64,000 nt of DNA from Bacteroidota bacterium (GTDB lineage Bacteria; Bacteroidota; Bacteroidia; Bacteroidales; JADFUO01). The stretch is from contig JAUXFX010000001.1 in the NCBI GenBank assembly GCA_030622635.1, forward strand, positions 306-64,305, written 5' to 3'. The translations under genes and the position numbers were made by a program. The first letter of the stretch is position 1; each line of letters opens with the position of its first letter. This document shows positions 2,328 to 42,387 of the stretch, piece by piece. A model generated the notes under the pieces. The model saw nothing but the letters and a program-made list of their open reading frames with translations, was not told the DNA's origin and did no database searches.

Positions 2328-2348
2328 GAGATTGTTTTTTTATTGTTT

Positions 2349-3200
2349 TTAATCTTCTTCACTTTTCAACTTGTCGGGATTTTTAATAAACTTTTTATCT
2401 TCAGATTTTACTCTGCGTTCTAATTTCTTCACATCTTCTTCAGGTGGTAGTTCTTCAGGTTTTATTCCACGTTCAAGTAATAGCTTTCTCACACCTTTAT
2501 TGTTTCTGATGTGTTCCCACGAAATTTGCTGTCCTGATTTTATATCCTTATCATTTATGTTAAAAATAGTAATTTCCGTAGCAAAGTCTTTAGCTTTTAT
2601 AGTAATTGTGGGTAAAAAATCAGCGAGTGGACGATTTTGTTTTATATCAAGTTTTTTCTTCATCTTGCTTGTAGAATATCCAAATAACGCCTGATCGCCT
2701 TTACTGCGAATAATACCGAAATCCCCGTCATTTCCGGTTCGTTCATAAATTAATTCTGAAAGTTCTTTTTCTGATAATGAAAGTTTATGGCGAGCATTTA
2801 AACGCTCCCAGTCTTTTATGCGTTGTTCAATTATCTCGAATTTCCTTGTTTGGACAGCAAAATAGTTTTGTGCAAAAGCAATTTGTTCTTTTTTGGGGTC
2901 TCCGTTTTGAGCTATCAGATAACAAGCAAAACGAGTGAGCATAATATCGTTAATTTCGCGTTCGGTCCCTGAGCCGATTTTGACCATTTTGTTGATGTCA
3001 ACAAAATGGTCTAAAACTATATGAACTGTAGTTTCGCAAGATGTTTTGGCTTTGTTTATTATCTTTAAAAAGTTGCGCCATTCGGTATAGCCAAGTAAGT
3101 GTTGTAAATCTCTGGCTAACCAAAATTCTATACCATTCTCAGTTTGATTAGCATAAGATTCAAAATCTTCGGTAAGATGTTTTACAATTTCCTTTTTCAT
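2349..3200 (-). CDS. dinD: DNA-damage-inducible protein D (DinD family)
   Basis: 283-aa ORF. The N-terminal FESYANQTENGIEFWLARDLQHLLGYTEWRNFLKIINKAKTSC and overall length match the DinD family as I recall it. Confidence 0.8.
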   Translation of the reverse strand: MKKEIVKHLTEDFESYANQTENGIEFWLARDLQHLLGYTEWRNFLKIINKAKTSCETTVHIVLDHFVDINKMVKIGSGTEREINDIMLTRFACYLIAQNGDPKKEQIAFAQNYFAVQTRKFEIIEQRIKDWERLNARHKLSLSEKELSELIYERTGNDGDFGIIRSKGDQALFGYSTSKMKKKLDIKQNRPLADFLPTITIKAKDFATEITIFNINDKDIKSGQQISWEHIRNNKGVRKLLLERGIKPEELPPEEDVKKLERRVKSEDKKFIKNPDKLKSEED

Positions 3201-3289
3201 TTTTTATTTATTTTGTTGCTGACTTCCCCGACCTGTTGGAAGTTCTTTTTGTTTTAATTATTTAGTTGTCTGCTAATTTACAATAAATC

Positions 3290-5971: not shown

Positions 5972-5972
5972 T

Positions 5973-6314
5973 TTAATTTTTTTTCTGCCAGGGAAATCTT
6001 CCGTCCAATTCAACTTGTAGAGATAAGCTTAGGAAAGTTCTTATTAATACAATTAATCCTAAGGCAAACACTTGATTTAGCGTAGGATCTATAATTACAG
6101 TATGGATAATATCAGCGGCTATCAAAACTTCTAATCCTATAAGAATAGATTTTCCAAGACCCATTTTTAATGATTTGAAGATATCCGGCTTTTTTTTCAG
6201 AAGACTGATTATAAATTTTATAAGAAAAAATAATATACCTAAAACGATTATGATAACCCCCGCGGCTTCCAGAATTTTAGATAACTGTTCAACGATAGTT
6301 TTTAAACTTTCCAT
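5973..6314 (-). CDS. Small membrane protein, DUF1622-like
   Basis: 113 aa with hydrophobic helices and a C-terminal ELDGRFPWQKK tail, reminiscent of DUF1622. Confidence 0.55.
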   Translation of the reverse strand: MESLKTIVEQLSKILEAAGVIIIVLGILFFLIKFIISLLKKKPDIFKSLKMGLGKSILIGLEVLIAADIIHTVIIDPTLNQVFALGLIVLIRTFLSLSLQVELDGRFPWQKKN

Positions 6315-6508
6315 ATTATTAATTGATTATTTTTTTCATACGTATCTAACTTGATTTAAAATTATTTTTTTAAGTTGTTGCTTAATTGAATTTTTAGTTA
6401 ATAAATCAACTTTCTTATCATAATACAACAAATTTAATATATTTTTCGGATTTTTTACAAATATAATTATATTATTAAATTATAATTTCAAAAAATACCC
6501 TGATTCAA

Positions 6509-18797: not shown

Positions 18798-20897
18798 ATG
18801 ATAAAACGGGGCTTGAACATACTCATTCATCCTTTAACTCTCAGTTTGCTGATAAGCTGTATTATAATTTCTTTACTTCCTCCTGTATTTAATAAATACA
18901 AGGCTAAAATCAATGAGACAAGAAAAATTCATGAACCTGAAATCTTTTCATATTATGATTTGGACTCTGACGGTTTTAGTGAAGAAATCTTGTATTATGG
19001 CCCACCTGATAATTATCCTTCATTAATTGTAAGAAATAAAGGAAAAATTATTGATCAAAAGAATTTTGAGGGAGTTTTTACCCCAGGTGATTTTTTTATA
19101 TATTGCGATTACAATAGTGATTCTATTGCTGAAATATTTGTTTTAACAATTAAAAATGATTCAATTATCCTTACCGGTGTTAACCCATATAAGGTTGGGG
19201 AAACTCATTTCATAAAGTTATTCATTGACAAATGCAGTATGTATGATGGTAGATACGATTGCCATGCTCATTTCTGTGACTCACCTGATACTGATGAGAA
19301 CGGTTACAAGGAACTGGTTTTCGGAATAAATACAGGGAGGTCAAAACAACCAAGAAATCTATACTTGGTGGATATTTTCAATGACACAGTTATTAAATCG
19401 CCGGTAAGTGGCACTGCAATCCATATACCTGTAGCTTTTGATATAAATAATGACGGATACAATGAATATATGGGGAAAAGTTGTGCGCATGGAAACTTTT
19501 ATAGGGATTCAATAGATTATCCCGATACACATGCCTGGCTAATGGTATTAGACAGAAAAATGAATTTTTTATTTGAACCCAAAAAGTTTGGCCAGTACAA
19601 AACAATTATAGATGTAAAGCCATTTAGGCCATTTAAAACTAATTATCTTATTGTTTTACAAAAACACCAGGGGACAGAAAACATAGATAACAAGCTTATA
19701 TTGTTTGATTCTAATGGGAATGAAATCAAGGAAAGATTATTAGAAGATTTTAGTGTCATTGAAAATTCATTTCTTATGTCACGAGATAAAGTAAGATGTA
19801 ATGATTTATACTTGTTCCTAAATAATGGACAAATTGAGCAAATTGATTCGAATTTAAATATTGTTAGCAAAATTTCTCTACCGGATATTCAAAATGTAAG
19901 GCCTTTTCGTATTGATGCGGATTTAGATGGATTGGATGAATTTGTCTTCACTGCGCAAGATAAACAAGGTTTGATCATAACAAGAAATGATTTTACATTT
20001 CCTGTTAAATTGGAATTTATCAATAATATGAATGTATGGCCATATTTTTCTATTAAAAGGCAAGGATACGAAAAACCGAAACTTTATACTCAAATAGGCG
20101 GGCAAAGTTTTATTATAGAATACTCTAAAAATCCACTACATCCCCTTAAATACTTCATCTGGATTGGAATATATGTGGGTGTCTTTTTCTTCCTTTTTCT
20201 TTTACAAAAAGTACAACAGATCAGAGCAAAGCATAAATATGAAACAGAAAAGAAGATCGCCGAGCTGCAGCTTAAGTATGTAAAAACCCAGACTGACCCT
20301 CATTTCACTTTGAATATTATAAATTCATTAGGAACCTTATTTTACCAAAATGATCCGGATAAGGCAAACTATATTTTTGGTAAATATGCCCAAATGTTAA
20401 GAAATACTATTTTACGCTCTGACGATATTTCAATCTCTTTGTCCGAAGAAATTGAATATGTTGAAAATTTTCTGGATCTTGAGAAATTCAGTCTGAATAA
20501 TAAGTTTGATTATAAAATTGAGATAGCTAAAAATGTAAATCAGGATAATAAAGTACCAAAGATGCTTTTACATACTTTTGTTCAAAATGCGATAAAACAC
20601 GGAATCAGGCATTTAAAGACCAAAGGAGAATTAAATATCAGTTTGGAAGCAAGTAACAAAAATTACATTTTTACTATTAGTGATAATGGTGTTGGCAGGA
20701 TAAAAGCAAAAGAATATTCTAAATTAAGCACAGGAAAGGGATTGAAGATACTTGATCAAATATTAGAGCTTTACTATAATCTGGAAGGGATCAAGATAAA
20801 ATATGATATTGTTGATTTATATGATAATTTTGGGGATCCGGCAGGTACAAAAGTAATAATTAATGTACCTGTTAAAATTAACGTGAGTCCAGGATAA
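18798..20897 (+). CDS. Sensor histidine kinase: N-terminal TM, FG-GAP/VCBS-like beta-propeller sensor, TM, LytS/YehU-type His_kinase + GHKL ATPase
   Basis: 699 aa. There are five DxDxDG-like repeats (DLDSDGFSE, DYNSDSIAE, DTDENGYKE, DINNDGYNE, DADLDGLDE). A TM segment YFIWIGIYVGVFFFLFLL follows, then TDPHFTLNIINSL and ISDNGVG...GKGLK. Confidence 0.8.
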   Translation: MIKRGLNILIHPLTLSLLISCIIISLLPPVFNKYKAKINETRKIHEPEIFSYYDLDSDGFSEEILYYGPPDNYPSLIVRNKGKIIDQKNFEGVFTPGDFFIYCDYNSDSIAEIFVLTIKNDSIILTGVNPYKVGETHFIKLFIDKCSMYDGRYDCHAHFCDSPDTDENGYKELVFGINTGRSKQPRNLYLVDIFNDTVIKSPVSGTAIHIPVAFDINNDGYNEYMGKSCAHGNFYRDSIDYPDTHAWLMVLDRKMNFLFEPKKFGQYKTIIDVKPFRPFKTNYLIVLQKHQGTENIDNKLILFDSNGNEIKERLLEDFSVIENSFLMSRDKVRCNDLYLFLNNGQIEQIDSNLNIVSKISLPDIQNVRPFRIDADLDGLDEFVFTAQDKQGLIITRNDFTFPVKLEFINNMNVWPYFSIKRQGYEKPKLYTQIGGQSFIIEYSKNPLHPLKYFIWIGIYVGVFFFLFLLQKVQQIRAKHKYETEKKIAELQLKYVKTQTDPHFTLNIINSLGTLFYQNDPDKANYIFGKYAQMLRNTILRSDDISISLSEEIEYVENFLDLEKFSLNNKFDYKIEIAKNVNQDNKVPKMLLHTFVQNAIKHGIRHLKTKGELNISLEASNKNYIFTISDNGVGRIKAKEYSKLSTGKGLKILDQILELYYNLEGIKIKYDIVDLYDNFGDPAGTKVIINVPVKINVSPG

Positions 20898-20935
20898 ATA
20901 AAGAACATAATCGGGTAATTCGTTAAAAAATGGAT

Positions 20936-20983
20936 AATTAACCTAATTTCTAATTGATCTAATTGACCTAAAAAATGACCAAT
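20936..20983. repeat. 48-nt direct repeat, copy 1 (upstream of the four-helix-bundle gene)
   Basis: aattaacctaatttctaattgatctaattgacctaaaaaatgaccaat is identical base for base to 21379-21426. Confidence 0.95.
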
Positions 20984-21019
20984 TTAAAATGACCAATAAA
21001 TAAAAAATAATTAATTAAT

Positions 21020-21376
21020 ATGGAAAAGGACGATATAAAATATGATTTAGAAGAAAGAACAGCTAAGTTTGGAGAAGATGTTATAGAATTTTGTAAAAAA
21101 GTTCCAAGAGACCTGATAACAAATCCGCTAATCACACAGCTTGTTAAATCAGGTACTAGTGTTGGGGCTAATTATTGTGAAGCCGATGATGCAGAGAGTA
21201 AAAAAGATTTTAAACACAAAATAGGGATAGTTAAAAAAGAATCTCGGGAATCAAAGCACTTCATACGAATGATTGTTTTTGCTGTTCCTGAATTGAAAAA
21301 GGATGGACAACCATTATGGCAGGAAGCAAAAGAATTAAATTTAATATTCAATTCAATTTTTCATAAAGTGAAGTAA
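21020..21376 (+). CDS. Four-helix-bundle protein (23S rRNA intervening-sequence protein / Avd-like family)
   Basis: 118 aa. LVKSGTSVGANYCEADDAESKKDFKHKIGIVKKESRESKHFIRMI matches the family pattern (SxGANxxEA ... E..Et..wl). Confidence 0.85.
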   Translation: MEKDDIKYDLEERTAKFGEDVIEFCKKVPRDLITNPLITQLVKSGTSVGANYCEADDAESKKDFKHKIGIVKKESRESKHFIRMIVFAVPELKKDGQPLWQEAKELNLIFNSIFHKVK

Positions 21377-21378
21377 AA

Positions 21379-21426
21379 AATTAACCTAATTTCTAATTGA
21401 TCTAATTGACCTAAAAAATGACCAAT
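21379..21426. repeat. 48-nt direct repeat, copy 2 (starts 3 nt after the four-helix-bundle stop)
   Basis: Identical to 20936-20983; the period is 443 bp. Confidence 0.95.
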
Positions 21427-21474
21427 GTAATAATAACCAAAATTTAGACATTAGATTTTGGGATTTGATTAGAG

Positions 21475-21504
21475 CAATTAGATCAATTAGAGTAATTAGA
21501 AATT
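21475..21504. repeat. Imperfect inverted copy of the 48-mer core
   Basis: The reverse complement of caattagatcaattagagtaattagaaatt is aatttctaattactctaattgatctaattg. This matches ctaatttctaattgatctaattg (21386-21408 and 20943-20965) apart from a 9-nt extra syllable. Confidence 0.8.
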
Positions 21505-21546
21505 TAAAACATATTAGAGCAGTTATAATAAATTTAATGATCAACT

Positions 21547-22149
21547 ATGAAACAAATAACCTGCATAATACTTGATGATGAAAAAGAGGCAAGGGATAGA
21601 ATTGTAATACTTTTAAGTAAGTTTGAAGGTATTAAGATAATTGGCATTGAAGGAGAACCGGAAAAAGGCATTGATAGTATTACTTCAAAAATACCCGATT
21701 TAGTATTTATTGATGTTGAAATGCCAAGGTTAACCGGTTTTGATGTAGTACGTGAAGTCAGAAAAAATAATGTAAATCCAGATTTCATTTTTGTAACCGG
21801 ATATAATCAATATGCTATCAAAGCAATTAAAAAAGAAGCATTTGATTACCTCCTCAAACCGGTTGATATTGATGAATTAAATGAAACAATAAACAGATAT
21901 AAAAGTAGCATTTATACGCGTTTAAAAGAAAAAAAATCTAAACAAACTGATGTGCTCAGTAAGTTCTCTGAAAGGGAAATAGAAATAATAAAGTTAATTG
22001 CCGAATATAAAACAAGCAAGCAAATTTCTGAAAAATTATATATCAGTAAAAATACAGTTGATACCCACAGGAGAAACATTTTAGAAAAAGCAGGGCTTCA
22101 TAAAACTGCTGAATTGGTGGTATTTGCGAGGGAAAATGGGCTGGTATAA
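21547..22149 (+). CDS. Response regulator, REC domain + LuxR/NarL-type HTH
   Basis: 200 aa. It has ILDDE...DLVFIDVEMP...KP (REC) and a C-terminal FSEREIEIIKLIAEYKTSKQISEKLYISKNTVDTHRRNILEK. Confidence 0.85.
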   Translation: MKQITCIILDDEKEARDRIVILLSKFEGIKIIGIEGEPEKGIDSITSKIPDLVFIDVEMPRLTGFDVVREVRKNNVNPDFIFVTGYNQYAIKAIKKEAFDYLLKPVDIDELNETINRYKSSIYTRLKEKKSKQTDVLSKFSEREIEIIKLIAEYKTSKQISEKLYISKNTVDTHRRNILEKAGLHKTAELVVFARENGLV

Positions 22150-22363: not shown

Positions 22364-22570
22364 ATGGAATATACTGCAATTATAAATAATATTGAGGATT
22401 GGTGGGTAGGGTGGATTGAGGAGATTCCAGGTGTAAATTGCCAGGAAAAAACCCGAAGTAAATTATTAGAAAGCCTGAAAATAATCCTGAAAGAAGCCCT
22501 GGAATTTAACAGGCAAGATGCACTATCAGTTGCCGGAGAAGGTTATGAAGAAGAGAGAATAGCTGTATGA
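22364..22570 (+). CDS. hicB: HicB-family antitoxin (short form)
   Basis: 68 aa. MEYTAIINNIEDWWVGWIEEIPGVNCQEKTRSKLLESLKIILKEALEF matches the HicB N-domain pattern. Its stop overlaps the hicA start (ATGA). Confidence 0.7.
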   Translation: MEYTAIINNIEDWWVGWIEEIPGVNCQEKTRSKLLESLKIILKEALEFNRQDALSVAGEGYEEERIAV

Positions 22571-22761
22571 AAAGAAGCAAACTTCTTAAGTATCTGCGAA
22601 TAAATGGTTGCATATTATTACGTGAAGGAGGAAATCATTCGTGGTGGATAAACCCGGCACAAAATAAACGTTCTTCAATTCCACGACATAATGAAATTAA
22701 AAATGAATCTTACAGCAATAATCGAAAAATCAGAAGATGGTTGGTATGTCGGGCAAATTGA
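22567..22761 (+). CDS. hicA: HicA-family toxin with atypical C-terminus
   Basis: MKRSKLLKYLRINGCILLREGGNHSWWINPAQNKRSSIPRHNEIK is canonical HicA. The last 19 aa (NESYSNNRKIRRWLVCRAN) are encoded out of frame over the next hicB-like gene and do not resemble the usual C-terminal helix. Confidence 0.65.
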   Translation: MKRSKLLKYLRINGCILLREGGNHSWWINPAQNKRSSIPRHNEIKNESYSNNRKIRRWLVCRAN

Positions 22762-22897
22762 GGAGTTTCCAGCTGCAATATCACAGGGCAAAACAATAGA
22801 TGAACTGAAAGCGAATTTGATTGATGCTTTTATGCTGCTTTTAGAAACAAACAAAGAAAGTTATTTAGCAAATACACAATTAGTATGCGATTGCTGA
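22703..22897 (+). CDS. hicB: Second HicB-family antitoxin
   Basis: MNLTAIIEKSEDGWYVGQIEEFPAAISQGKTIDELKANLIDAFMLLLE is a classic HicB pattern. The track start 22691 is also possible. Confidence 0.65.
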   Translation: MNLTAIIEKSEDGWYVGQIEEFPAAISQGKTIDELKANLIDAFMLLLETNKESYLANTQLVCDC

Positions 22898-23398
22898 ATA
22901 ACATGTAACTTGCCATTTGATTAGAAATTAGTGCAATTAGATTAATTAGGTCAATTTCGTTTCAATCATTTAAAGTAATGTTAAAATTTTTAAGTTGTGA
23001 ACAGTTACAAATATAGTTTAATATTCCCTGACTCAAAAAAATCTGCAGGATATACGCCCCTTTGTTTAGTTGTGGATATATTATTCAAACACCCAATATC
23101 AAAAAAACAAATAACAACCCGCCGGGGTGCTGACAAGTTTAACCATTTAACAATTCAACCATTTAACTCCAGATACGCTCATTCTTCGCTATCGGGATCT
23201 CCGCTTCGCTCCGACATTCATCAATTTTAAAATCTAAATTTTAAAATCTAAAATCATAAATCACAAATCCCTCCATCCCCTTTTAATAGTATCAATTTAC
23301 CATTTTGATGGTATTGGAAGTTGGTATCATCTGGTTGTAATTTTGTTTCAGTTTATTTTAAATCAAATTATTTTATTAATCAAAAATAGGAGGTTATT

Positions 23399-25069
23399 AT
23401 GAAAAAAGTATTTTTTACTATTCTTGGAATCTTAGTTTTTTGTGGATTATTCGCACAGGAGATACCACAGAAAATATCTTATCAGGGTAAATTGCTTGAA
23501 AATGGCAACCCTGTAAACGGAACAAAAAGCATCACATTTACCATCAGTACGTGGAGCGAAACAAAAAGCGTTACAGTAAATAACGGGCTGTATTCAGTAA
23601 CACTTGGCGAAACAACGCCTATTCCAACAAGTATTTTTGATAATACTTCAAGTGTTACTTTGCAAATATCAGTTGAAGGTGTTACGCTTTCACCTCAAAC
23701 AGATATATTATCAGTTGCTTATGCTTATAAAGCTTATAAAGCAGAAAAATCTGTAGATGCAGAGAAAATAGCAGGTAATCCTGTATCAGGTACTCCAAGT
23801 ACAAATCAAGTATTAAAATGGAATGGTACTCAATGGGTGCCTAACACAGATTTAACTGGGGGTCCCCCAACAGGCACAGCGAGTGGTGATTTATCAGGGA
23901 ATTATCCAAATCCAAAAGTAATTGGCTTGCAGAACAAGCCTGTTTCAAGTTTAGCACCTTCTACAAATAAGGTATTAAAATGGGATGGATCACAATGGAA
24001 ACCTCAAATAGATGAAACTCTTAATGGTACTCAAGCGGGTGGTGATTTATCAGGGAATTATCCAAATCCAAAAGTAATCGGCTTGCAGAACAGGCCTGTT
24101 TCAAGTTCAACACCTTCTACAAACCAAGTGTTAACATGGAGTGGGAACCAATGGAAACCGTCAAATCCAACAGGCAGCAGTCTCTGGTCACAAAGTGGTA
24201 GCAACATCTTTTACAATTCTGGCAATGTTGGTATTGGAACTTCTAATCCATATGGAATCTTTGAAGTTTTTAGTACAAGCAATGTAGAAGAGTATGTAAC
24301 ATCAGGCTCTGCAACAGGTTCTGCTAGAACATGGTATTCGTCTGGTTCAGTAGGTTTTGGTAATTCGTGGAATGTTGGTATTAGAGGTGACTTGAATAAA
24401 GGATACGCTATTGAAAGTTATTCAGGAGGTTGGGCACCAAGATTGTTTATTACACAAGCAGGGAATGTTGGAATTAACACGTCAAATCCACAAGAACTCC
24501 TTAATGTAGCAGGGGGGACGATAGAAGTTTACCCGGCTACTGATGGTCAAAGAGGGATTAGGATTAGGTCTGCTGATCAAAGCGAAAATTTTATTCTTGA
24601 CATGAAAAATGATGGCACAATGCAAATAGGTGCAAATTCAGGCACTATGCAGTTATCTTCTACATTCGGAGTTGATTCACGCAACTTATCGGGTACATGG
24701 CGGCCCATGAGTGCATCTAGCTTCAATGTCCGGAGTTCAAGAAGTCTCAAGTCTAACATAAAATATATTGACCAATTCGGCACCGCATATTGGCTTGAGC
24801 AAATCTTACTAATGAAGCCTGCCAACTATATTTATAATTGGGAAGCTGAATCAACTCAATCTCGACTTGGTTTCATTGTAGAAGAATTACCCGAAGAATT
24901 AAAGGGGCAAGATGGTAAATCTGTTAACCTTTATGCACTAACAAGTGCTGGAATAGTAGGTATTAAAGGTTTGTATCTAATGTTGGAGAAACAGCAAGAA
25001 CTTATTAAAAGTTTACAGGAAGAAATAGAAGCATTGAAAAATAAGGAGGACAACCATGAAACCAATTAA
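23399..25069 (+). CDS. Secreted tail-fiber-like protein with C-terminal intramolecular-chaperone (peptidase S74-like) domain
   Basis: 556 aa with signal peptide MKKVFFTILGILVFCGLFAQ. It has 2.5 tandem repeats of GDLSGNYPNPKVIGLQN[KR]PVSS..PSTN.VL.W.G.QW.P. The C-terminus is SSRSLKSNIKYI...RLGFIVEELPEEL...VNLYALTSAGIVGIKGLYLMLEKQQELIKSLQEEIEALK. AGGAGG lies 5 nt before the ATG. Confidence 0.75.
   Translation: MKKVFFTILGILVFCGLFAQEIPQKISYQGKLLENGNPVNGTKSITFTISTWSETKSVTVNNGLYSVTLGETTPIPTSIFDNTSSVTLQISVEGVTLSPQTDILSVAYAYKAYKAEKSVDAEKIAGNPVSGTPSTNQVLKWNGTQWVPNTDLTGGPPTGTASGDLSGNYPNPKVIGLQNKPVSSLAPSTNKVLKWDGSQWKPQIDETLNGTQAGGDLSGNYPNPKVIGLQNRPVSSSTPSTNQVLTWSGNQWKPSNPTGSSLWSQSGSNIFYNSGNVGIGTSNPYGIFEVFSTSNVEEYVTSGSATGSARTWYSSGSVGFGNSWNVGIRGDLNKGYAIESYSGGWAPRLFITQAGNVGINTSNPQELLNVAGGTIEVYPATDGQRGIRIRSADQSENFILDMKNDGTMQIGANSGTMQLSSTFGVDSRNLSGTWRPMSASSFNVRSSRSLKSNIKYIDQFGTAYWLEQILLMKPANYIYNWEAESTQSRLGFIVEELPEELKGQDGKSVNLYALTSAGIVGIKGLYLMLEKQQELIKSLQEEIEALKNKEDNHETN
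23885..24146 (+). repeat. Intragenic tandem duplication, 156-nt period (52 aa)
   Basis: ggtgatttatcagggaattatccaaatccaaaagtaat[tc]ggcttgcagaaca[ag]gcctgtttcaagtt... at 23885 and again at 24041. Identity is high by eye over about 105 nt. A more diverged partial unit lies at 23771-23850. Confidence 0.85.
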
Positions 25070-25562
25070 AATACTTTCAATTGCTATATTTTTACTCTGC
25101 TTGAATAATTTCACTCAAGCCCAAAATTATAGCACTTTAGCTGAAGTGCTTTCATCTGGTGGTGGCGAATCCGTCGGGAGTAATTATTCAAATTTTGGGG
25201 TAATTGGTGAAACATTTGTAAGTTATTCTGTAACAGGTGGAAATTATAATACATCCTTTGGATTTCTATATGCATCTGCCATTATTATAGGGATTAACGA
25301 AATGATTTTTAATAATCAATTTATTAGAATATTTCCAAACCCATCAAATGATATAGTTTATATTAAAACAACCGAAACAGGTTTATTCATTAAAAATATT
25401 GAAATATTAAATGTGATCGGAAAATCAGTATATCAAAGAGTTTTGGATAATGCAAATGATTTAATTAAAATATCTGTAACTGATTTTCAACCAGGTTTTT
25501 ATTTTATTAAGCTACATACAAATAAAGGAGTAGTCTTAAATAAATTCATAATTAATCGGTAG
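25056..25562 (+). CDS. Small secreted protein with T9SS type A C-terminal sorting domain
   Basis: 168 aa with a signal peptide. The C-terminal IRIFPNPSNDIVYIKT...GKSVYQ...DFQPGFYFIKLHTNKGVVLNKFII is a Por secretion tail. The start overlaps the upstream gene by 14 nt. AAGGAGG lies 6 nt before the ATG. Confidence 0.8.
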   Translation: MKPIKILSIAIFLLCLNNFTQAQNYSTLAEVLSSGGGESVGSNYSNFGVIGETFVSYSVTGGNYNTSFGFLYASAIIIGINEMIFNNQFIRIFPNPSNDIVYIKTTETGLFIKNIEILNVIGKSVYQRVLDNANDLIKISVTDFQPGFYFIKLHTNKGVVLNKFIINR

Positions 25563-25583
25563 TATTTTATTTAGCGTAAAACT

Positions 25584-25619
25584 AGGCTATCTAAAAAGCA
25601 AGATAGTCTGGTTTTTTCT
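25584..25619 (+). terminator. Rho-independent terminator-like hairpin plus T-run
   Basis: ctaggctatct-aaaaagca-agatagtctgg is followed by tttttt, 22 nt after the stop at 25562. Confidence 0.5.
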
Positions 25620-25674
25620 TATTTTAAAAAAGAAATTGAAAGTGCGTGAAATAATAAATAACAAAGTAGATAAG

Positions 25675-26034
25675 ATGCAGATCACGGATATCATAAAAAC
25701 ATATCTGGATTGGTCTGCTTATTCCAAATCGCAAGATTACCAAGAGATGTTGAATATAACTATTCCCAATTCCAAGTTCTTTGAGATTTCAAATTTATGC
25801 AAAAAAAGCTGGGCTCTCGGTATAGATTGTTATTATGAGTTTAGTTCTGTTAAGGTCATTAAAATAATTAACACTCCGCATAGTGCATTGGTAAAAGGAG
25901 ATATAAGGTTAATTCAATCCAATAAAAAATTAAGTTTCAAAGGGAAATTCCAATCAAGCTGTTTGTTTGAAACAATTGATAATAAAGGAAATTCATGGAA
26001 ATTGAATGAACTTGGAATAGATTGGGAGCTTTGA
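25675..26034 (+). CDS. Hypothetical protein (no family recognised)
   Basis: 119 aa from ATG 25675 (the track start 25636 is TTG). I recognise no motifs. It is the last gene of the accessory segment. Confidence 0.4.
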   Translation: MQITDIIKTYLDWSAYSKSQDYQEMLNITIPNSKFFEISNLCKKSWALGIDCYYEFSSVKVIKIINTPHSALVKGDIRLIQSNKKLSFKGKFQSSCLFETIDNKGNSWKLNELGIDWEL

Positions 26035-36074: not shown

Positions 36075-36318
36075 AACTTAATAAGATTTTAAGTGTTAAA
36101 AAATGGCTGCAAAAGTAATTAGTTTTATAATATTAAAAAGAAAAAATAAAATATTTTCAACACTATTACGTTTTTGCAACAAATTGATTTTGGTGGGTTT
36201 AAACTAAATATTTGAAAAATAATTCTAATAAAACAAGTTTTATTTTTAAACTTTTGTCTTAAAGAAAAATATTTTTACTATTTTAGCCCTTCTTATAAAC
36301 ATATTGTATATCTATTTA

Positions 36319-37269
36319 ATGAATTTTAAAAAACACATAATCGTAATAATATTTTCATTGTTTATTGGCAATATGAGCATTGCACAACAAATGCCTCAAT
36401 TTACTCAGAATATGTTTACTAATATGGCTGTAAACCCGGGTTATGCAGGAATAAGTGGAGCAATGTGTGTATCCGGATTAGTAAGACAACAATGGGTCGG
36501 TTTTAAAGATAGCGAAGGTAACAAAGTTGCCCCCGAAACATTTCTGATTACATTCGATACACCTGTCAGAATGATACATGGAGGAATCGGAGTATCGGTT
36601 ATTCAGGATAAAATAGGTTTTCAAAAAAATGTGGGATTAAATGTAGGATATTCATATCATCGCGACTTGGGCAGGGGTGTATTGGGGATTGGTGCTCAAA
36701 TCATTTTTTTGAACAAATCAGTTGATGCTTCTAAATACATTGCAATTGACGAGGTAGATCCCGTAATTGATAACCTGAAAAGTAACGGAAGCACTATGCT
36801 TATTGATTTTGCATTTGGCTTGTTTTATAAAGTCCCTGATGCATACTATATTGGTATATCATCATATAACTTAGCTCAGTCAAAATGGAAGTTTGAAAAT
36901 GATTTTAATTACACTTTAAAAAGAACTTTTTATTTCACTGCAGGTTATGAATTTACTTTACCAAATAATCCTTCTTTCCAAATTGACCCATCAATTTTTA
37001 TAAAAACCGACGGTTCATCAACCCAATACGATATAAATGCTCTTGTAAAATACAATAATAAGTTTTGGGGAGGCGTTACATACAGAGTACAGGATGCCGT
37101 GGCGGTAATACTTGGAATGAAATACAAAAACTTCCGCATAGGTTATGCTTATGATATTCCACTTTCATCAATCGGAATGAATGGCAGCCATGAAGTTTTA
37201 TTGGGTTATTGCTTTAAAATTGAAGTAGAAAGAGCGAGGAAAAGATATAAAAATACAAGATTTTTATAA
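36319..37269 (+). CDS. porP: PorP/SprF-family type IX secretion membrane protein
   Basis: QQMPQFTQNMFTNMAVNPGYAG is the family N-terminal signature. I prefer ATG 36319 to the TTG at 36304. Confidence 0.85.
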   Translation: MNFKKHIIVIIFSLFIGNMSIAQQMPQFTQNMFTNMAVNPGYAGISGAMCVSGLVRQQWVGFKDSEGNKVAPETFLITFDTPVRMIHGGIGVSVIQDKIGFQKNVGLNVGYSYHRDLGRGVLGIGAQIIFLNKSVDASKYIAIDEVDPVIDNLKSNGSTMLIDFAFGLFYKVPDAYYIGISSYNLAQSKWKFENDFNYTLKRTFYFTAGYEFTLPNNPSFQIDPSIFIKTDGSSTQYDINALVKYNNKFWGGVTYRVQDAVAVILGMKYKNFRIGYAYDIPLSSIGMNGSHEVLLGYCFKIEVERARKRYKNTRFL

Positions 37270-37375
37270 TTAATTCGTTTATTAATTTTTTTTATTCAGT
37301 TTTTTTTTAATTTTGAACCCCCAAAATAATAAATATTTGTAATTCCCGTTAGTTTGACAATTAAATATTAAAAAC

Positions 37376-38746
37376 ATGAAAAAACTATTCATTTACTTAG
37401 CAATAATAATCTTTCTGGGCAGTTGCAGTAATTCAGGAAATGGAGAACTTGTTGGAGTGAACAGAAAATCAAAACCATTTTATCAACCTGATCCATATGG
37501 TATGATGTTTATCCCTCAGGGAAGCTATACAATGGGTGTTAGTGATCAGGATATTTCTTATTCACAACTTCATGAGCCGAAAACAATTTCAGTGTCAGCA
37601 TTTTTTATAGATGAGACTGAAATTACAAATAATGAATACAGGCAATTTGTTTATTGGGTAAGAGATTCTATTGCCCGAACTCTTCTTGGCGAACTCAATC
37701 CCGAAGATTATTTAATTGAAGAGAATAAAAAAACAGGTGAATTATACGACCCCCCATATCTAAACTGGGACGAAGATATTGACTGGCAAAGTGATGAACA
37801 GGATGTTAGAGATGTTCTTGAAGATATGTATTTACCTGAACATGAAAGATATTTCAGAAGAAAAGAAATTGATACCAGAAAATTGAATTACGAATATTAC
37901 TGGGTTGACTTACACGCTGCTGCTGTCAAAGATTTTACACAGGAAGCAAATTTTGAGAATGCAAGTTTAGCAAACCGCCCTCAAGGTTTAAGAGACAGGT
38001 CGGTTTATGTTAGAAAAGAAGTAATAAATGTTTATCCGGATACATTATCTTGGATACATGATTATACTTACTCATTTAACGATCCGATGACAGAAAAATA
38101 TTTCTGGCATCCTGCTTATGATAATTATCCTGTAGTAGGCATTAACTGGAGGCAGGCAAAAGCATTCTGTGTTTGGAGAACAGAAATGTTAAACAGTTAT
38201 CTGAGAGGGAAAAAGGGAGGAACCAGTTTAGCCGAATTTCGATTGCCTACCGAAGCTGAATGGGAATGGGCAGCACGCGGAGGTTATGGTTTAAGTCCGT
38301 TTCCATGGGGAGGCCCTTATACAAGGAACGAAAAAGGCTGCTTCTTGGCAAATTTCAAACCACTTAAAGGTAATTATATTGATGATGGTGGCTTGCGTAC
38401 TGTAATCGTTGCCCATTATCCTTCAAACGATTGGGGTATTTATGACATGGCTGGCAACGTGGCAGAATGGACAAACAGCGCTTATGATCCTTCATCATAT
38501 AATTTTACATGGGATATGAATCCTAATTATACTTACAATGCAAAAGAATCCGATCCGCCTGCAATGAAGAGAAAAGTCATAAGAGGAGGATCATGGAAAG
38601 ATATTGCATATTATTTACAAGTTACAACCAGGGCTTATGAATATCAGGATACAGCAAAATGCTATATCGGTTTCAGGTGTATCCAGCCTTATCTTGGAAG
38701 AAACAAGGATGATAATCCTGCACGTGCTTCAAAAGTTTATAATTAA
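37376..38746 (+). CDS. gldK: Gliding motility/T9SS lipoprotein GldK (PorK), SUMF1/FGE fold
   Basis: 456 aa. It has the lipobox LGSCS, VIRGGSWKD, and sits first in a K-L-M-N order. Confidence 0.9.
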   Translation: MKKLFIYLAIIIFLGSCSNSGNGELVGVNRKSKPFYQPDPYGMMFIPQGSYTMGVSDQDISYSQLHEPKTISVSAFFIDETEITNNEYRQFVYWVRDSIARTLLGELNPEDYLIEENKKTGELYDPPYLNWDEDIDWQSDEQDVRDVLEDMYLPEHERYFRRKEIDTRKLNYEYYWVDLHAAAVKDFTQEANFENASLANRPQGLRDRSVYVRKEVINVYPDTLSWIHDYTYSFNDPMTEKYFWHPAYDNYPVVGINWRQAKAFCVWRTEMLNSYLRGKKGGTSLAEFRLPTEAEWEWAARGGYGLSPFPWGGPYTRNEKGCFLANFKPLKGNYIDDGGLRTVIVAHYPSNDWGIYDMAGNVAEWTNSAYDPSSYNFTWDMNPNYTYNAKESDPPAMKRKVIRGGSWKDIAYYLQVTTRAYEYQDTAKCYIGFRCIQPYLGRNKDDNPARASKVYN

Positions 38747-38802
38747 AAATTTAATAGTATATTTCAAATTAAAAATTATTATTTACCTAACTATTTAATA
38801 TT

Positions 38803-39828
38803 ATGGGTTTAAACAATTTAGTAAGAAGTAGAGGATTTAGAAATTTTATGGCTAAACTCTATGGCTGGGGTGCGGCAGTCGTAATTTTAGGTGCACTCTT
38901 TAAAATTAATCACTATCCATATGCAGATTATATGTTGATTGTAGGTTTAGGTACAGAATCGTTAATATTCTTTTTCTCTGCATTCGAACCACCACATGTT
39001 GAACCGGACTGGAGTTTGGTTTATCCGGAATTAGCAGGTATGTATCATGGAATGGATCTTGCTGAACAAAAGAGAATTGGAGTTACCGAAAAATTAGACG
39101 ACCTGCTTGCAGAAGCTAAAATCGGACCGGAGTTGATTGAGAGCCTTGGCATGGGATTACGAAATTTGAGTGATCAAACATCAAAATTAAAAGATGTATC
39201 AAATGCAACTATTGCCACAAACGAATTTGTTGAAAATGTAAAAAATGCTTCTTCTTCAGCCGGTGAACTTTCTCAGGCATACAAAAAAACTTCCGAATCG
39301 CTTAATCAGGATTCAGGTGCTTCAATAGAATACATTAATAATATTAAACAAGCATCAATCGGTGCTGCTAATCTTTCAAATGCATATTCACAAGCATCAG
39401 AATCAATCAAAAACGATTTATCTGTTACACATGAATTTGCAGGAAGTATTAAAGCAGCTACACAATCAGCAAATAATTTAGTTGAAAATTATACTAAATC
39501 AGCAGAAATTCTTTCAAAATCAGTTGAAATTCTTGATTTTTCAGCTGCAGAAGGTTCTTCTTATAATGAACAATTAAAAAGAATATCAGATAATCTGTCT
39601 GCTTTGAATGCTGTATATGAATTGCAATTACAAGGCACAAACCAGCAAGTTGAATCATCTGCCAAACTTCAGCAAACTATGAACCAGTTTCTTGAAAATA
39701 TTAATGAATCTGCTGATAAAATGGGAATCTACAAAGAACAAATTGATGTATTAACAGAAAAAGTAGCTGCCCTTAATAAAGTATATGGGAATATGCTGTC
39801 GGCTATGAGTTTTAATCCAAACAGTTAA
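38803..39828 (+). CDS. gldL: GldL (PorL)
   Basis: 341 aa. There are two N-terminal TM helices (YGWGAAVVILGALFKINHYPYADYMLIVGLGTESLIFFFSAFEPP) followed by a long coiled region. Confidence 0.9.
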   Translation: MGLNNLVRSRGFRNFMAKLYGWGAAVVILGALFKINHYPYADYMLIVGLGTESLIFFFSAFEPPHVEPDWSLVYPELAGMYHGMDLAEQKRIGVTEKLDDLLAEAKIGPELIESLGMGLRNLSDQTSKLKDVSNATIATNEFVENVKNASSSAGELSQAYKKTSESLNQDSGASIEYINNIKQASIGAANLSNAYSQASESIKNDLSVTHEFAGSIKAATQSANNLVENYTKSAEILSKSVEILDFSAAEGSSYNEQLKRISDNLSALNAVYELQLQGTNQQVESSAKLQQTMNQFLENINESADKMGIYKEQIDVLTEKVAALNKVYGNMLSAMSFNPNS

Positions 39829-39887
39829 AACTGAATAAAATCAGTAATATAGAAAAAATATTTATTTAAAAATTACAATAATTATTT

Positions 39888-41498
39888 ATGGCTGGATATA
39901 AGGAAACCCCGCGACAGAAAATGATTGCGATGATGTACCTGGTGTTGACAGCACTTTTGGCACTTAACGTTTCAAAAGAGATGTTAGATGCATTTATTGT
40001 GGTTAACAAAAGTGTTGAAAATACTAAAGCAAATTTTGCCAGTAAAATTGATGACACTTACAATAGATTTGAACAACAACTAAAAATTAATCCTAACAAA
40101 GTAGGTCCATACTGGGAAAAAGCACAAAAAGCAAAACAGTTATCTGAACGAATTGTCAGATATATTGATAGTGTAAAATATGCTGTTATTATACGTACAG
40201 ATGGTTTGATAGAAACAGTTGAACAGGCAAAAAATATTCCATTAGGGCAGGTTCATGCCAAAGATATGTTTACCGAACCAACACGATATTTCTTTGGCCG
40301 TTCGGAAGACGGAACTACCGGCGAAGCAGGAAAACTAAAAAGAAAAATAAATAATTACAGAGATCAAATGCTTGAGATAGCTGGTGAACCTCTTGATAGT
40401 GACCGTTTAGGATTAATCACAAAAGGACCATACTATAATGCAGACGGAAAACCCCTTACATGGGAACAATATAACTTTTATTATACAATTTTAGCTGCCG
40501 ATGTAACTATATTAAATAAATTTATTTCAGAAGTTCAAAGTGCTGAATTTGATGTTGTTAGCCTTCTATATTCTTCTGTAACCGCCGAAGATTTTAAGTT
40601 TGATGAAATTAATGCTAAAGTTGTTCCGAAAACTTCTTACATATTGAAAGGTCAAACCTATGAAGCTGAAGTATTTGTTGCTGCCTATGACACAAAACAA
40701 GACCCTGAAGTTTTTGTATTAAAGGGAGTTGACACCATCACAAGCGGAAATATTAAAAGGGCTGTGCCGGTTGAAGGAAAAAAAGGAGTTGTAAAACTAT
40801 CTTTCACCGGAAATACCGAAGGACCTCAAAAATATGCGGGTATAATTAAAATCTTAAACCCTGAAGGTGAAGCATTGAATTTTCATTTTAAAGGTGACTA
40901 TATTGTGGGTCCGCCTTCGCTTACTGTAGCAGCTACCAAAATGAATGTATTTTACATTGGAGTTGATAATCCGGTATCAATTTCAGTTCCAGGTGTGGCT
41001 GCTGAAAATCTTTATCCAGACATAACTTCCGGTGCTAGTTTAACACGTGACCCTGAAGGTAAAGACTGGATAGTAAGAGTACCAAAAGGTATGAAAAGAG
41101 CAGTAGTAACTGCTGATGCAAATTTTGAAGGCAAAAGAATAAATATGGGATCAAGCGAATTCCGTGTAAAAAGAGTCCCTGCTCCTATTGCAGAAATTGC
41201 AGGTCAAAAAGAAGGTGCAATTAATAAAAATACTTTATTAGCTGCTAATGCAATTATACCTTCAATGAAGGATTTTGAATTTGATCTGTATTTTGAAGTT
41301 AAATCTTTTACTATGGCTACTATTATCAGTGGAGACTGGATACCTAAAACTACAAGAGGTAACACGTTTTCAGAAGAAATGATAAATATTATCAGAGATG
41401 CAAAACGAAAACAAAAATTCTTTTTTGAAAACATACAGGCAGTTGGACCTGACGGCACAACCCGTACTTTAAATGTAATAAATCTTATAATTGATTAG
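39888..41498 (+). CDS. gldM: GldM (PorM)
   Basis: 536 aa. The N-terminus is MAGYKETPRQKMIAMMYLVLTALLALNVSKE. Confidence 0.9.
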   Translation: MAGYKETPRQKMIAMMYLVLTALLALNVSKEMLDAFIVVNKSVENTKANFASKIDDTYNRFEQQLKINPNKVGPYWEKAQKAKQLSERIVRYIDSVKYAVIIRTDGLIETVEQAKNIPLGQVHAKDMFTEPTRYFFGRSEDGTTGEAGKLKRKINNYRDQMLEIAGEPLDSDRLGLITKGPYYNADGKPLTWEQYNFYYTILAADVTILNKFISEVQSAEFDVVSLLYSSVTAEDFKFDEINAKVVPKTSYILKGQTYEAEVFVAAYDTKQDPEVFVLKGVDTITSGNIKRAVPVEGKKGVVKLSFTGNTEGPQKYAGIIKILNPEGEALNFHFKGDYIVGPPSLTVAATKMNVFYIGVDNPVSISVPGVAAENLYPDITSGASLTRDPEGKDWIVRVPKGMKRAVVTADANFEGKRINMGSSEFRVKRVPAPIAEIAGQKEGAINKNTLLAANAIIPSMKDFEFDLYFEVKSFTMATIISGDWIPKTTRGNTFSEEMINIIRDAKRKQKFFFENIQAVGPDGTTRTLNVINLIID

Positions 41499-41528
41499 AA
41501 ATTTAAAATAAATATAATTTTTCCTAAC

Positions 41529-41534
41529 AGGAGG
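41529..41534 (+). promoter_or_regulatory. Canonical Shine-Dalgarno AGGAGG 4 nt before the gldN ATG
   Basis: The sequence is caggaggtattATG. Most other genes in the window have A/T-only leaders. Confidence 0.5.
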
Positions 41535-41538
41535 TATT

Positions 41539-42387
41539 ATGAAAAAACTACTCATCTCGTTATTCACTCTAAGCTTGATAATAGCGATAAATATTAATTC
41601 ACAATCACAAATACTTGATAGCCCGCCACAGGATGGACTTTTTCCCGACATAGGAATGATTGATAAGAAACCTGTTCCATATCCGCCATTGAGAAAGGCA
41701 GATATTATGTGGTCTAAAAGAATATGGCGCGTTATTGATATGCGCGAAAAAATAAATCAACCGTTTTATTACCCGTTAGAACCGCATAACGGATGGAGAA
41801 GCTTTATGCAAATTATTATGGATGCCTTAAAAGAAGGGTCAATTACAGCTTATGATATTTCCGGTACTGACGAATTTTTAGTGCCACTAACTTATCAGGC
41901 AGTTATAACAAGACAGATTGACACTTTCCATACAATACTAAATCGATCATATCCTCCTTATGATGAGTATGATACTGTTATTTTTTCGGAATTTGATCCA
42001 TCCAAAGTTATGCGTATTAGGATTAAAGAAGACTGGTATTTTGACAAACAACGTTCACAATTACTTGTAAGAATACTTGGGATTTGTCCTATTATGATGA
42101 AAGACCGGGAAGGTGTTGAAATTCCCGAACCTTTATTCTGGATTCACTTTCCTGAAGCAAGACCAATACTGGCTAAAGCAGAAATGTTTAACAGGTTTAA
42201 TAGCGCCGAAAGAAGAACTTATGATGAAATATTCTGGAAAAGAATGTTCGGAAGTTATGTTTATAAAGAACAAAATGTTTATGACAGAAAAATCTCGCAA
42301 TATGCAACCGGTATGGATGCTTTGCTTGAAGCTGAAAGAATCAAAAATGAATTATTTGAATTTGAACATGATCTTTGGGAATTTTAA
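41539..42387 (+). CDS. gldN: GldN (PorN)
   Basis: 282 aa with a signal peptide. It is the last gene of the gldKLMN operon. Confidence 0.88.
   Translation: MKKLLISLFTLSLIIAININSQSQILDSPPQDGLFPDIGMIDKKPVPYPPLRKADIMWSKRIWRVIDMREKINQPFYYPLEPHNGWRSFMQIIMDALKEGSITAYDISGTDEFLVPLTYQAVITRQIDTFHTILNRSYPPYDEYDTVIFSEFDPSKVMRIRIKEDWYFDKQRSQLLVRILGICPIMMKDREGVEIPEPLFWIHFPEARPILAKAEMFNRFNSAERRTYDEIFWKRMFGSYVYKEQNVYDRKISQYATGMDALLEAERIKNELFEFEHDLWEF

Follow-up and report, generated by a model that had tools for sequence, protein, structure and literature searches.

How can a surface fiber that carries no sorting signal of its own be displayed on a cell of the Bacteroidota? The question is raised by two overlapping genes in a stretch of 64,000 nucleotides (hereafter the window) from a Bacteroidota bacterium of the Bacteroidales lineage JADFUO01 (GenBank assembly GCA_030622635.1, contig JAUXFX010000001.1, positions 306 to 64,305 of the forward strand). 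The first gene encodes a 556-aa protein resembling phage tail fibers, and the second encodes a 168-aa partner with a C-terminal sorting domain (CTD) of the type IX secretion system (T9SS). The original prediction made from this DNA had proposed a two-partner surface-fiber system, in which the small protein carries or anchors the trimeric fiber through the T9SS. Here, we report that the pairing of the two genes is kept in at least 20 loci, and that it belongs to the N-terminal base module of the fiber and not to its chaperone tip. Three outcomes named in advance as refuting that prediction were checked, and none arose: both predicted domains are real, the pairing recurs, and strong Shine-Dalgarno (SD) sites such as those of the two genes are rare in the window. 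A dedicated two-partner fiber system is therefore well supported genetically.

Chimeric phage-derived fibers have only recently been recognized as cellular adhesins, namely as the mosaic adhesive trimer (MAT) fibers of Bdellovibrio bacteriovorus (Caulton et al. 2024, PMC10769870). According to the passages of that paper used here, and likewise for all statements on MAT fibers below, these proteins begin with a signal peptide and a conserved N-domain (beta-rich, ~110-130 aa) and continue with a phage-like shaft, which ends in a tip that may or may not contain an S74 domain. The N-domain has no homolog in PDB, its binding partner was left unidentified, and the authors explicitly leave open how it is held on the cell.

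Domain organization of the fiber and its partner

The elements of the two-gene cassette are listed below (ORF, open reading frame; AF2, AlphaFold2; pLDDT, predicted local distance difference test).

23388-23393, + strand: SD site AGGAGG(T) of the fiber gene, read in the sequence, 5 nt 5' of the ATG
23399-25069, + strand: fiber gene, 556 aa, a predicted MAT-like mosaic surface fiber (ORF, homologs, Pfam/NCBIfam, AF2 model)
23399-23455, + strand: predicted Sec signal peptide, fiber aa 1-19, sequence MKKVFFTILGILVFCGLFA followed by QEIP, with predicted cleavage between A19 and Q20
23456-23773, + strand: N-terminal base module of the fiber, aa 20-125, a predicted beta-sandwich (identity among paired fibers, pLDDT)
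23774-24163, + strand: shaft repeats of the fiber, aa 126-255 (units of ~45-52 aa, tandem DNA repeat)
24164-24733, + strand: middle region of the fiber, aa 256-445 (GNVGIGTSNP-type beta-helix-like repeats, resemblance to tail fibers and Bd2133)
24734-25066, + strand: predicted S74 intramolecular chaperone/autoprotease, fiber aa 446-556 (PF13884, profile matches, invariant Ser/Lys)
25043-25049, + strand: SD site (T)AAGGAGG of the partner gene, 6 nt 5' of the ATG, within the last codons of the fiber gene
25056-25562, + strand: partner gene, 168 aa (ORF; signal peptide, N-terminal module, short linker, type A T9SS CTD)
25122-25289, + strand: N-terminal module of the partner, aa 23-78 (Q-NYSTLAEVLSSGGGESVGSNYSNFGVIGETFVSYSVTGGNYNTSFGFLYAS), delimited by family conservation and proposed as the fiber-docking element
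25329-25559, + strand: predicted type A T9SS sorting domain, partner aa 92-168 (PF18962, TIGR04183, model)

Both proteins start with a Sec-type signal peptide, which is followed by an invariant glutamine at the predicted +1 position (Q20 in the fiber, invariant in the N-module alignment A5, and Q23 in the partner). This agrees with the Q-rule described for substrates of signal peptidase I in Bacteroidetes (PMC5837995). The two ORFs overlap by 14 nt, as originally described.

The Peptidase_S74 family (PF13884) was matched marginally by the full fiber (aa 446-499, 22.8 bits against a cut-off of 22) and above the cut-off by its C-terminal segment (25.2 bits). This marginal call is secured by an alignment of the C-terminal segments of nine fiber homologs (alignment A4). 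Its profile matches the solved chaperone domains of the phage S16 long tail fiber (6F45, E = 3e-10), MYRF (7DC3), 8JOV and the GA-1 neck appendage (3GUD), and Ser446 and Lys451 (SSRSLK) are invariant and aligned with the canonical S-D-x-x-x-K motif. Eight of the nine aligned segments match PF13884 individually, the best at E = 3e-18. Judged from sequence, the self-cleaving chaperone domain proposed for the fiber is thus real. With intramolecular chaperones of the phage type (endosialidase, T5 pb1, S16 gp37, GA-1 neck appendage, MYRF ICA) it shares the C-terminal S(D)xxxK Ser-Lys pair and a helical segment, modeled here as a long C-terminal helix (aa 511-555, AF2 monomer). Unlike in those domains, the non-catalytic Asp after the catalytic Ser446 is replaced by Ser, the Asp being found in more distant homologs. 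Also unlike phage spikes and fibers, the window fiber is cellular, is predicted to be Sec-exported and lies outside any virion gene cluster. In line with the original prediction, scans of the fiber against Pfam and NCBIfam gave no T9SS CTD at E<=1, nor any recognizable membrane anchor, lipobox or sorting signal.

The fiber is a mosaic, in which a common N-terminus is combined with exchangeable S74 or non-S74 tips. In total, 335 homologs were found, which share different modules with it. In a module map of 120 of them, the N-terminal module (aa 20-125) is common to ~95, the repeat region (aa 126-255) is shared by many, and the middle part (aa 256-440) and the S74 region (aa 441-556) are each shared by few. 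The N-module is modeled with pLDDT >90 over aa 30-70 and 81-93 over aa 71-100. A Foldseek search of the full fiber model against PDB returned nothing at E<=0.001, the best matches being generic Ig-like sandwiches on the N-domain; this outcome agrees with the absence of a PDB homolog reported for the N-domain of MAT fibers, yet is uninformative. The N-module was found neither in PHROGs nor, by a pattern scan with alignment A5, in 2.9 million IMG/VR contigs.

The shaft units carry the motifs ...PSTNQVLKWxGxQWxP and GDLSGNYPNPKVIGLQ and are modeled mostly with pLDDT 62-90. They are encoded by a tandem DNA repeat at 23878-24166 (period 156 nt, 1.8 copies, 88% matches), corresponding to a unit of 52 aa; P0002 lacks one such unit. 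The copy number of the 156-nt repeat differs between the window and the near-identical contig L001 (see below), by either real length variation or assembly collapse. The middle region matches PHROG tail-fiber families (E = 1e-7 to 1e-8) and, weakly, the sequence of the solved Bd2133 fiber (8OND, E = 0.009); pLDDT of the monomer model is low over aa 290-350.

By its sequence, the fiber fits best as a short member, from the Bacteroidota, of the kind known from Bdellovibrio MAT chimeric fibers, to which it is distantly related. NCBIfam family NF053851 (Bdello_MAT_N) was matched by all 17 members of the N-module alignment, in every case below the cut-off (best E = 1e-8; window N-module ~30 bits against the 60-bit cut-off). 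As in MAT fibers, a conserved N-terminal domain, beta-rich in the model, comes right after the signal peptide, a shaft of repeats and possibly beta-helical parts with GNxGIGT-type motifs leads to exchangeable tips with or without S74, and several copies per genome or locus occur. Unlike in MAT fibers, the N-module stays under the family cut-off, which points to a distant relative; the host is a non-predatory-looking member of the Bacteroidota equipped with a T9SS; the protein is much shorter (556 aa against ~1031-1151 aa for Bd2133 and Bd1334); and a dedicated downstream adaptor gene is present, none being mentioned in the passages searched of PMC10769870.

The sorting domain proposed for the partner was likewise detected by hidden Markov model (HMM) searches: aa 92-167 match Por_Secre_tail (PF18962, E = 9e-14, 52 bits against a cut-off of 27) and TIGR04183 (E = 3e-10, 40.1 bits against a cut-off of 23), over the full length of both models. 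This domain is modeled at pLDDT 80-91 and superposes on 8GLK_D from the Flavobacterium johnsoniae translocon (target-normalized TM-score 0.85, 33% identity). The top Foldseek matches are the CTDs of NucA and RemA in SprA translocon complexes and the mirolase CTD; 8GL6_D and 8QB1 match as well. From its CTD family, its modeled Ig-like beta-sandwich fold, its signal peptide and the T9SS genes of the window, the partner appears to be a T9SS type A cargo protein. Like the type A cargo of Porphyromonas gingivalis (gingipains) and F. johnsoniae (RemA, NucA), it combines a Sec signal with a 7-strand beta-sandwich sorting domain (TIGR04183), its CTD fold matches translocon-bound CTDs, and core T9SS genes are encoded nearby. 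Unlike these proteins, it has a passenger of only ~65 residues, which holds no enzymatic or adhesin domain, and is genetically tied to a second protein without a sorting domain.

Most proteins of the partner family are ~150-170 aa long, and their best-conserved part is not the sorting domain: it is a segment of ~50 residues right after the signal peptide, with the consensus AEVISSGGGESTGGNYSNFGVIGETFVDYSVTGGNYNTSIGFLYAS, which has no match in Pfam or NCBIfam. When the 58-residue module alone was searched by phmmer against 1.84 billion representative proteins, 66 representatives (50% identity clustering) were obtained, and the module lies at residues ~20-80 in all of them except P0205 (163-213). 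The C-termini behind the module are variable: Por_Secre_tail was assigned to 52 of 67, CHU_C to four and FlgD_ig to two. In a few long proteins, the module and the sorting domain are separated by leucine-rich repeat (LRR), cadherin, PKD, Ig or peptidase C1 domains, and one long variant of the LRR type sits behind a fiber (L027). The breadth of the family rests on this representative scan, because a search of 5.8 billion proteins with the module profile gave three fragments only. Members of the partner family were found in neither IMG/VR nor PHROGs. As far as our searches show, the module is undescribed; by sequence, it precedes T9SS tags in Bacteroidota, and in bacteria where no T9SS is expected it precedes C-termini of other kinds. 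Modeled alone, the module has pLDDT <50 in spite of its conservation, as expected of a segment that folds on a partner. Homology of the module to the GNYPNPKVIG repeat of the fiber was considered and rejected (local alignment score 36, shuffle mean 36.8).

Conservation of the pairing and its tie to the fiber base

To compare the cassette across genomes, loci (numbered L001 onward where they have to be told apart) were fetched via the partner, and all of their ORFs were scanned with HMMs of the fiber N-module and the partner module. Among the 25 non-redundant partner genes, 20 directly adjoin a gene for an N-module fiber, and the remaining five are cut by contig ends; no partner locus with a complete neighboring gene lacks the N-module. 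A reverse search, with fibers chosen only for lying on long contigs, added two pairs with canonical partners (L030 and L031). Downstream of the fiber, L033 has a protein with a sorting domain and the GC-rich L032 has a 152-aa protein without a T9SS domain; both show a divergent module motif by eye and give no score against the partner profile. The motif in L033 is of a divergent type, ISSGG...SIGE...LTQGF, which is seen in L029 as well. In the Magnetomoraceae locus L025, the fiber gene is overlapped by a gene for a 788-aa protein, which carries the module at its N-terminus and lacks a T9SS sorting domain. Dockerin-like motifs were also seen by eye in L025, L032 and L033; they have no Pfam match at E<=0.01 and are not claimed.

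The linkage to the partner belongs to the fiber base module and not to the S74 chaperone tip, as follows from two observations: paired fibers share only their N-terminus, and one locus keeps its partner while the tip is swapped. The paired fibers are 62-77% identical to the window fiber over the first 125-205 residues alone and diverge afterwards, and most of them have no S74 domain. The locus with the swapped tip, L029, has flanks ~90% identical to the window at the DNA level and a partner 83% identical; its fiber has the same N-terminal and middle regions, whereas the tip differs and contains no S74. L029 also holds a second cassette, which is divergent and shows the reversed order, partner then fiber, with a gap of 1 nt (cassettes at 2141-3869 and 4357-6507); its fiber was found independently by the N-module profile, and its partner was among the sequences from which the partner profile was built. 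The survey thus supports the genetic side of the two-partner system originally proposed, with the tie moved from the S74 chaperone to the N-terminal base. The 14-nt overlap, from which translational coupling had been suggested, is present in the window and is not conserved, since fiber-partner spacing ranges from -14 to +171 nt across the loci. In terms of mean identity, the fiber N-module (68%) and the partner module (63%) are followed by the rest of the fiber (47%) and the sorting domain (41%).

Several loci hold more than one gene of a kind. A fiber-partner-fiber tandem is found in L015 (231-1481, 1606-2115 and 2381-3316), and one metagenome-assembled genome of Bacteroidales holds two separate cassettes (L004 and L005), which recalls the multi-gene MAT repertoire of Bdellovibrio. 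Upstream of the cassettes of L029 lie a Y1 transposase gene and a remnant of a response regulator. Between fiber and partner, a 46-aa single-pass membrane mini-ORF was observed in L003 (2045-2182), L010 (4086-4223, the same in L011 and L012) and L031 (4931-5071). It has the motif ...IIVGFIVSVYLFGxGxIKEIIHP, is 67-70% identical between lineages, is preceded by a GGAGGA of its own in L003 and L010, and is absent from the window. In L013, L014 and L015, the fiber and partner genes are separated by a 124-nt spacer (1616-1739 in L014) containing a GC-rich hairpin with 12 perfectly matched base pairs (GTAGAGACGAGG...CCTCGTCTCTAC). The hairpin has no T-run, lies 5' of the partner SD and may be an element of mRNA processing or stability.

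An apparent cross-domain occurrence was rejected and excluded as independent evidence. Loci L001 and L002 lie on contig JABCSY010000160.1 from the bin 'Promethearchaeota archaeon HM4_B22', which is 7.5 kb long, has ~1x coverage and carries the fiber-partner pair (window positions 23352-25325) at 99.9% DNA identity, with one 156-nt unit collapsed. The homology ends abruptly on both sides beside archaeal-looking genes (Ras/Arf-like GTPase). Because of this identity, the abrupt break points and the 1x coverage, the contig is almost certainly chimeric or misbinned and does not represent a transfer.

Shine-Dalgarno sites and genomic context

A census of SD matches (>=5 nt) among the 46 non-nested ORFs of >=100 aa in the window found three, in front of the fiber gene, the partner gene and gldN (41539-42387, 40 nt past gldM, named GldN by NCBIfam; AGGAGGT at ~41526-41532), in agreement with the rarity originally noted. 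With an assumed Bacteroidia anti-SD tail, the 16S rRNA gene not being in the window, the SD/anti-SD duplex energies are -11.4 kcal/mol for the fiber, -11.1 for the partner and -11.7 for gldN, whereas 42 other ORFs of the window average -1.0 and reach -6.3 kcal/mol at the lowest. In related loci, the two sites of the cassette behave differently. The partner SD, (A)AGGAGG, is present in 17 of 21 non-redundant loci, whereas among the background ORFs of these loci (>=120 aa) only 1 in 49 has an SD; this speaks for translational control of the partner under selection and not for a foreign origin. The fiber SD is present in only 4 of 15, including the close relative L029. The partner SD is therefore a conserved feature, and the gene overlap is a local one. 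Of the two meanings originally suggested for the SD sites, special translational control thus fits the partner better, foreign origin is not supported, and the fiber SD is not conserved.

Ribosomes of Bacteroidia have been reported to be blind to SD sequences, with bS21, bS18 and bS6 sequestering the anti-SD; in F. johnsoniae, rpsU is virtually the sole gene with a strong SD, and expression of an AGGAGGU reporter rises on depletion of bS21 (PMC9976891, PMC13000453). In view of these reports, a selected SD on an adaptor gene is unusual. Like rpsU in the F. johnsoniae case (bS21-lacking ribosomes), the partner gene maintains a strong SD in a lineage whose ribosomes normally ignore such sites. 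Unlike rpsU, it is not a ribosomal gene, and its duplex energy is ~-11 kcal/mol (with the assumed anti-SD tail) versus the < -13 kcal/mol typical of rpsU.

The following further features of the window bear on the cassette.

18798-20897, + strand: sensor histidine kinase, candidate regulator (Pfam: FG-GAP-like N-terminal region, LytS-type His_kinase, HATPase)
21547-22149, + strand: LuxR/GerE-type response regulator, candidate regulator of the cassette (Pfam)
25578-25625, + strand: terminator-like hairpin (25578-25615) and T-run, from a pattern scan (15-pair stem, then TTCTTATTTT)
36304-42387, + strand: T9SS core genes porP/sprF, gldK, gldL, gldM and gldN (NCBIfam equivalogs, every one above cut-off)

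The T9SS genes begin ~10.7 kb from the cassette, close to the 10 kb originally given, and would encode the machinery by which the partner CTD is exported. The hairpin lies 16 nt past the partner stop codon and probably closes the two-gene operon. The upstream kinase and LuxR-type regulator (18798-22149) probably control transcription of the cassette. Homologs of the kinase (35-36% identity) lie directly upstream of the cassette, and homologs of the regulator (39-51% identity) beside it, in L007/L024 (1786-4374), L008 (1680-4287) and L031 (1-1698), a remnant of the regulator being found in L029. With the window counted, the kinase-regulator pair recurs in four distinct loci; several other cassette loci have neither gene.

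As had been noted originally, no phage genes were found nearby: a Pfam/NCBIfam scan of the neighboring ORFs matched no phage family, and the neighbors are the kinase, the regulator, toxin-antitoxin-like ORFs, a DUF4421 protein and a TPR protein, not structural genes of phages or tailocins. An ORF of the 23S rRNA intervening-sequence family was observed as an insertion between kinase and regulator (21020-21376), and small HicA/HicB-like (UPF0150) ORFs, one apparently frameshifted, lie between regulator and fiber (22364-22897). The stretch between regulator and fiber therefore looks like a variable islet. The 490 nt upstream of the cassette are 91% identical to L029, which indicates close relatedness to that locus and no more. 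Directly 3' of the cassette, a 132-aa ORF with a TTG start (25636-26034) has no family match; it is 85% identical in L029 and identical in L028, and was seen in these close relatives alone. The window has a G+C content of 32% with A-rich leaders, as would suit, together with its porP/sprF and gld genes, a member of the Bacteroidota equipped with a T9SS. An Rfam search of the window gave no match.

Possible roles of the partner

We give about an even chance to a two-gene surface-fiber cassette in which the adaptor module of the partner docks on the fiber base and its tag provides T9SS export, surface tethering or both. Under this model, both proteins would enter the periplasm via Sec. The S74 domain would drive trimerization of the fiber and then cut itself off at Ser446. 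The adaptor module would bind the N-terminal base domain of the presumably trimeric fiber in the periplasm, probably folding only upon binding, and its sorting domain would deliver both proteins to the translocon of the T9SS. Once outside, the CTD would be removed and the ~65-residue adaptor covalently tethered to the surface, as in PorU-mediated attachment to anionic lipopolysaccharide, so that the fiber would be held base-in and tip-out. The strong conserved SD would set translation of the adaptor apart from the usual SD-blind initiation of Bacteroidia.

Several points weigh against this model. In a mirror-tree (Mantel) comparison made over 15 pairs, the fiber N-module and the partner module showed no significant correlation (r = 0.35, p = 0.08), and the result was no better than for the fiber remainder and the partner (r = 0.38). 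The low pLDDT of the module may only reflect its shallow 30-sequence alignment. A WOR-3 fiber with a weaker N-module has no partner downstream. Since related fibers occur where T9SS is not expected (Bdellovibrio, Magnetomoraceae), export of the fiber cannot universally depend on a T9SS tag. Many type A cargo proteins are released and not anchored, and no literature precedent was found for hitch-hiking T9SS export of a protein without a CTD.

A rival that we consider unlikely is the reverse polarity: the fiber would reach the surface by a MAT route of its own and act as a scaffold, and the partner would be T9SS cargo docking on its base, so that the long variants would display LRR, cadherin or protease domains and the 168-aa form would be minimal or capping. 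Bdellovibrio is not known to have a T9SS. MAT-type fibers are exposed on its surface (PMC10769870), and some members of the partner family do carry Peptidase_C1, LRR, cadherin, PKD or Ig domains, including the one behind a fiber in L027. Most members, however, have nothing between module and CTD, leaving ~65 residues with no obvious role but linkage, and the fiber itself has no recognizable anchor, lipobox or sorting signal. An improbable reading is that the partner helps in the periplasm to assemble or hold the fiber, as a phage tail-fiber assembly protein would, and is later disposed of via the T9SS without being a structural anchor. Phage fiber genes typically precede a small chaperone gene, and the cassette resembles such pairs (T4 gp37/gp38, lambda Stf/Tfa) in having a large fiber gene followed immediately, sometimes with overlap, by a small accessory gene, whose module looks unfolded alone. 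Unlike the accessory proteins of these pairs, which act on the tip, the partner follows the fiber N-terminus, has a signal peptide and a T9SS tag, which one would hardly expect of a simple chaperone, and gave no match in the viral collections covered (IMG/VR, PHROGs); the fiber, moreover, already has an S74 chaperone of its own.

The weak co-evolution signal would also fit two co-transcribed surface proteins that share regulation and do not interact, their adjacency being operon hitch-hiking. We hold this to be distinctly improbable, as the adjacency outlasts tip swapping, variable spacing, the reversed order in L029 and transfer across phyla, and the fiber N-module and the partner module are the two most conserved segments of the cassette. 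We hold it to be highly improbable, finally, that the pair is what is left of a foreign tail-fiber module (prophage, tailocin or contractile injection system), its SD sites coming from the donor. The C-terminal two thirds of the fiber do resemble phage tail fibers and carry S74, and SD sites are not typical of the host; yet no scanned neighbor matches a phage family, both proteins have Q-rule Sec signal peptides, 2.9 million viral contigs yielded no match to the N-module or to the partner, and retention of the partner SD across many Bacteroidota lineages indicates selection, not a relic.

Returning to the adaptor model, we put forward one extension of it tentatively, as a doubtful but possible reading: the partner module may be a cell-side receptor or adaptor for the MAT-type N-domain across phyla, with interchangeable C-termini, piggy-back T9SS export of the fiber in Bacteroidota, which would be the first case of its kind, and synthesis of the adaptor gated by its SD. 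A full-text literature search found no paper that links T9SS with S74 or MAT-type fibers or describes T9SS hitch-hiking, and as far as our searches show, the adaptor module and its genetic coupling to the fiber base are undescribed.

The locus and its relatives provide a concrete candidate for the way in which the N-domain of such fibers is attached to the cell, namely a small module encoded next door, which is T9SS-tagged in Bacteroidota. If the model is true, it would define a new adaptor domain family, explain the display of fibers without sorting domains on Bacteroidota, and show that the T9SS can handle hetero-oligomeric cargo. A constant base and adaptor with swappable tips could serve the engineering of surface display in Bacteroidota. 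The conserved SD of the adaptor gene provides a rare non-ribosomal test case for the use of SD sites in the SD-blind Bacteroidia.

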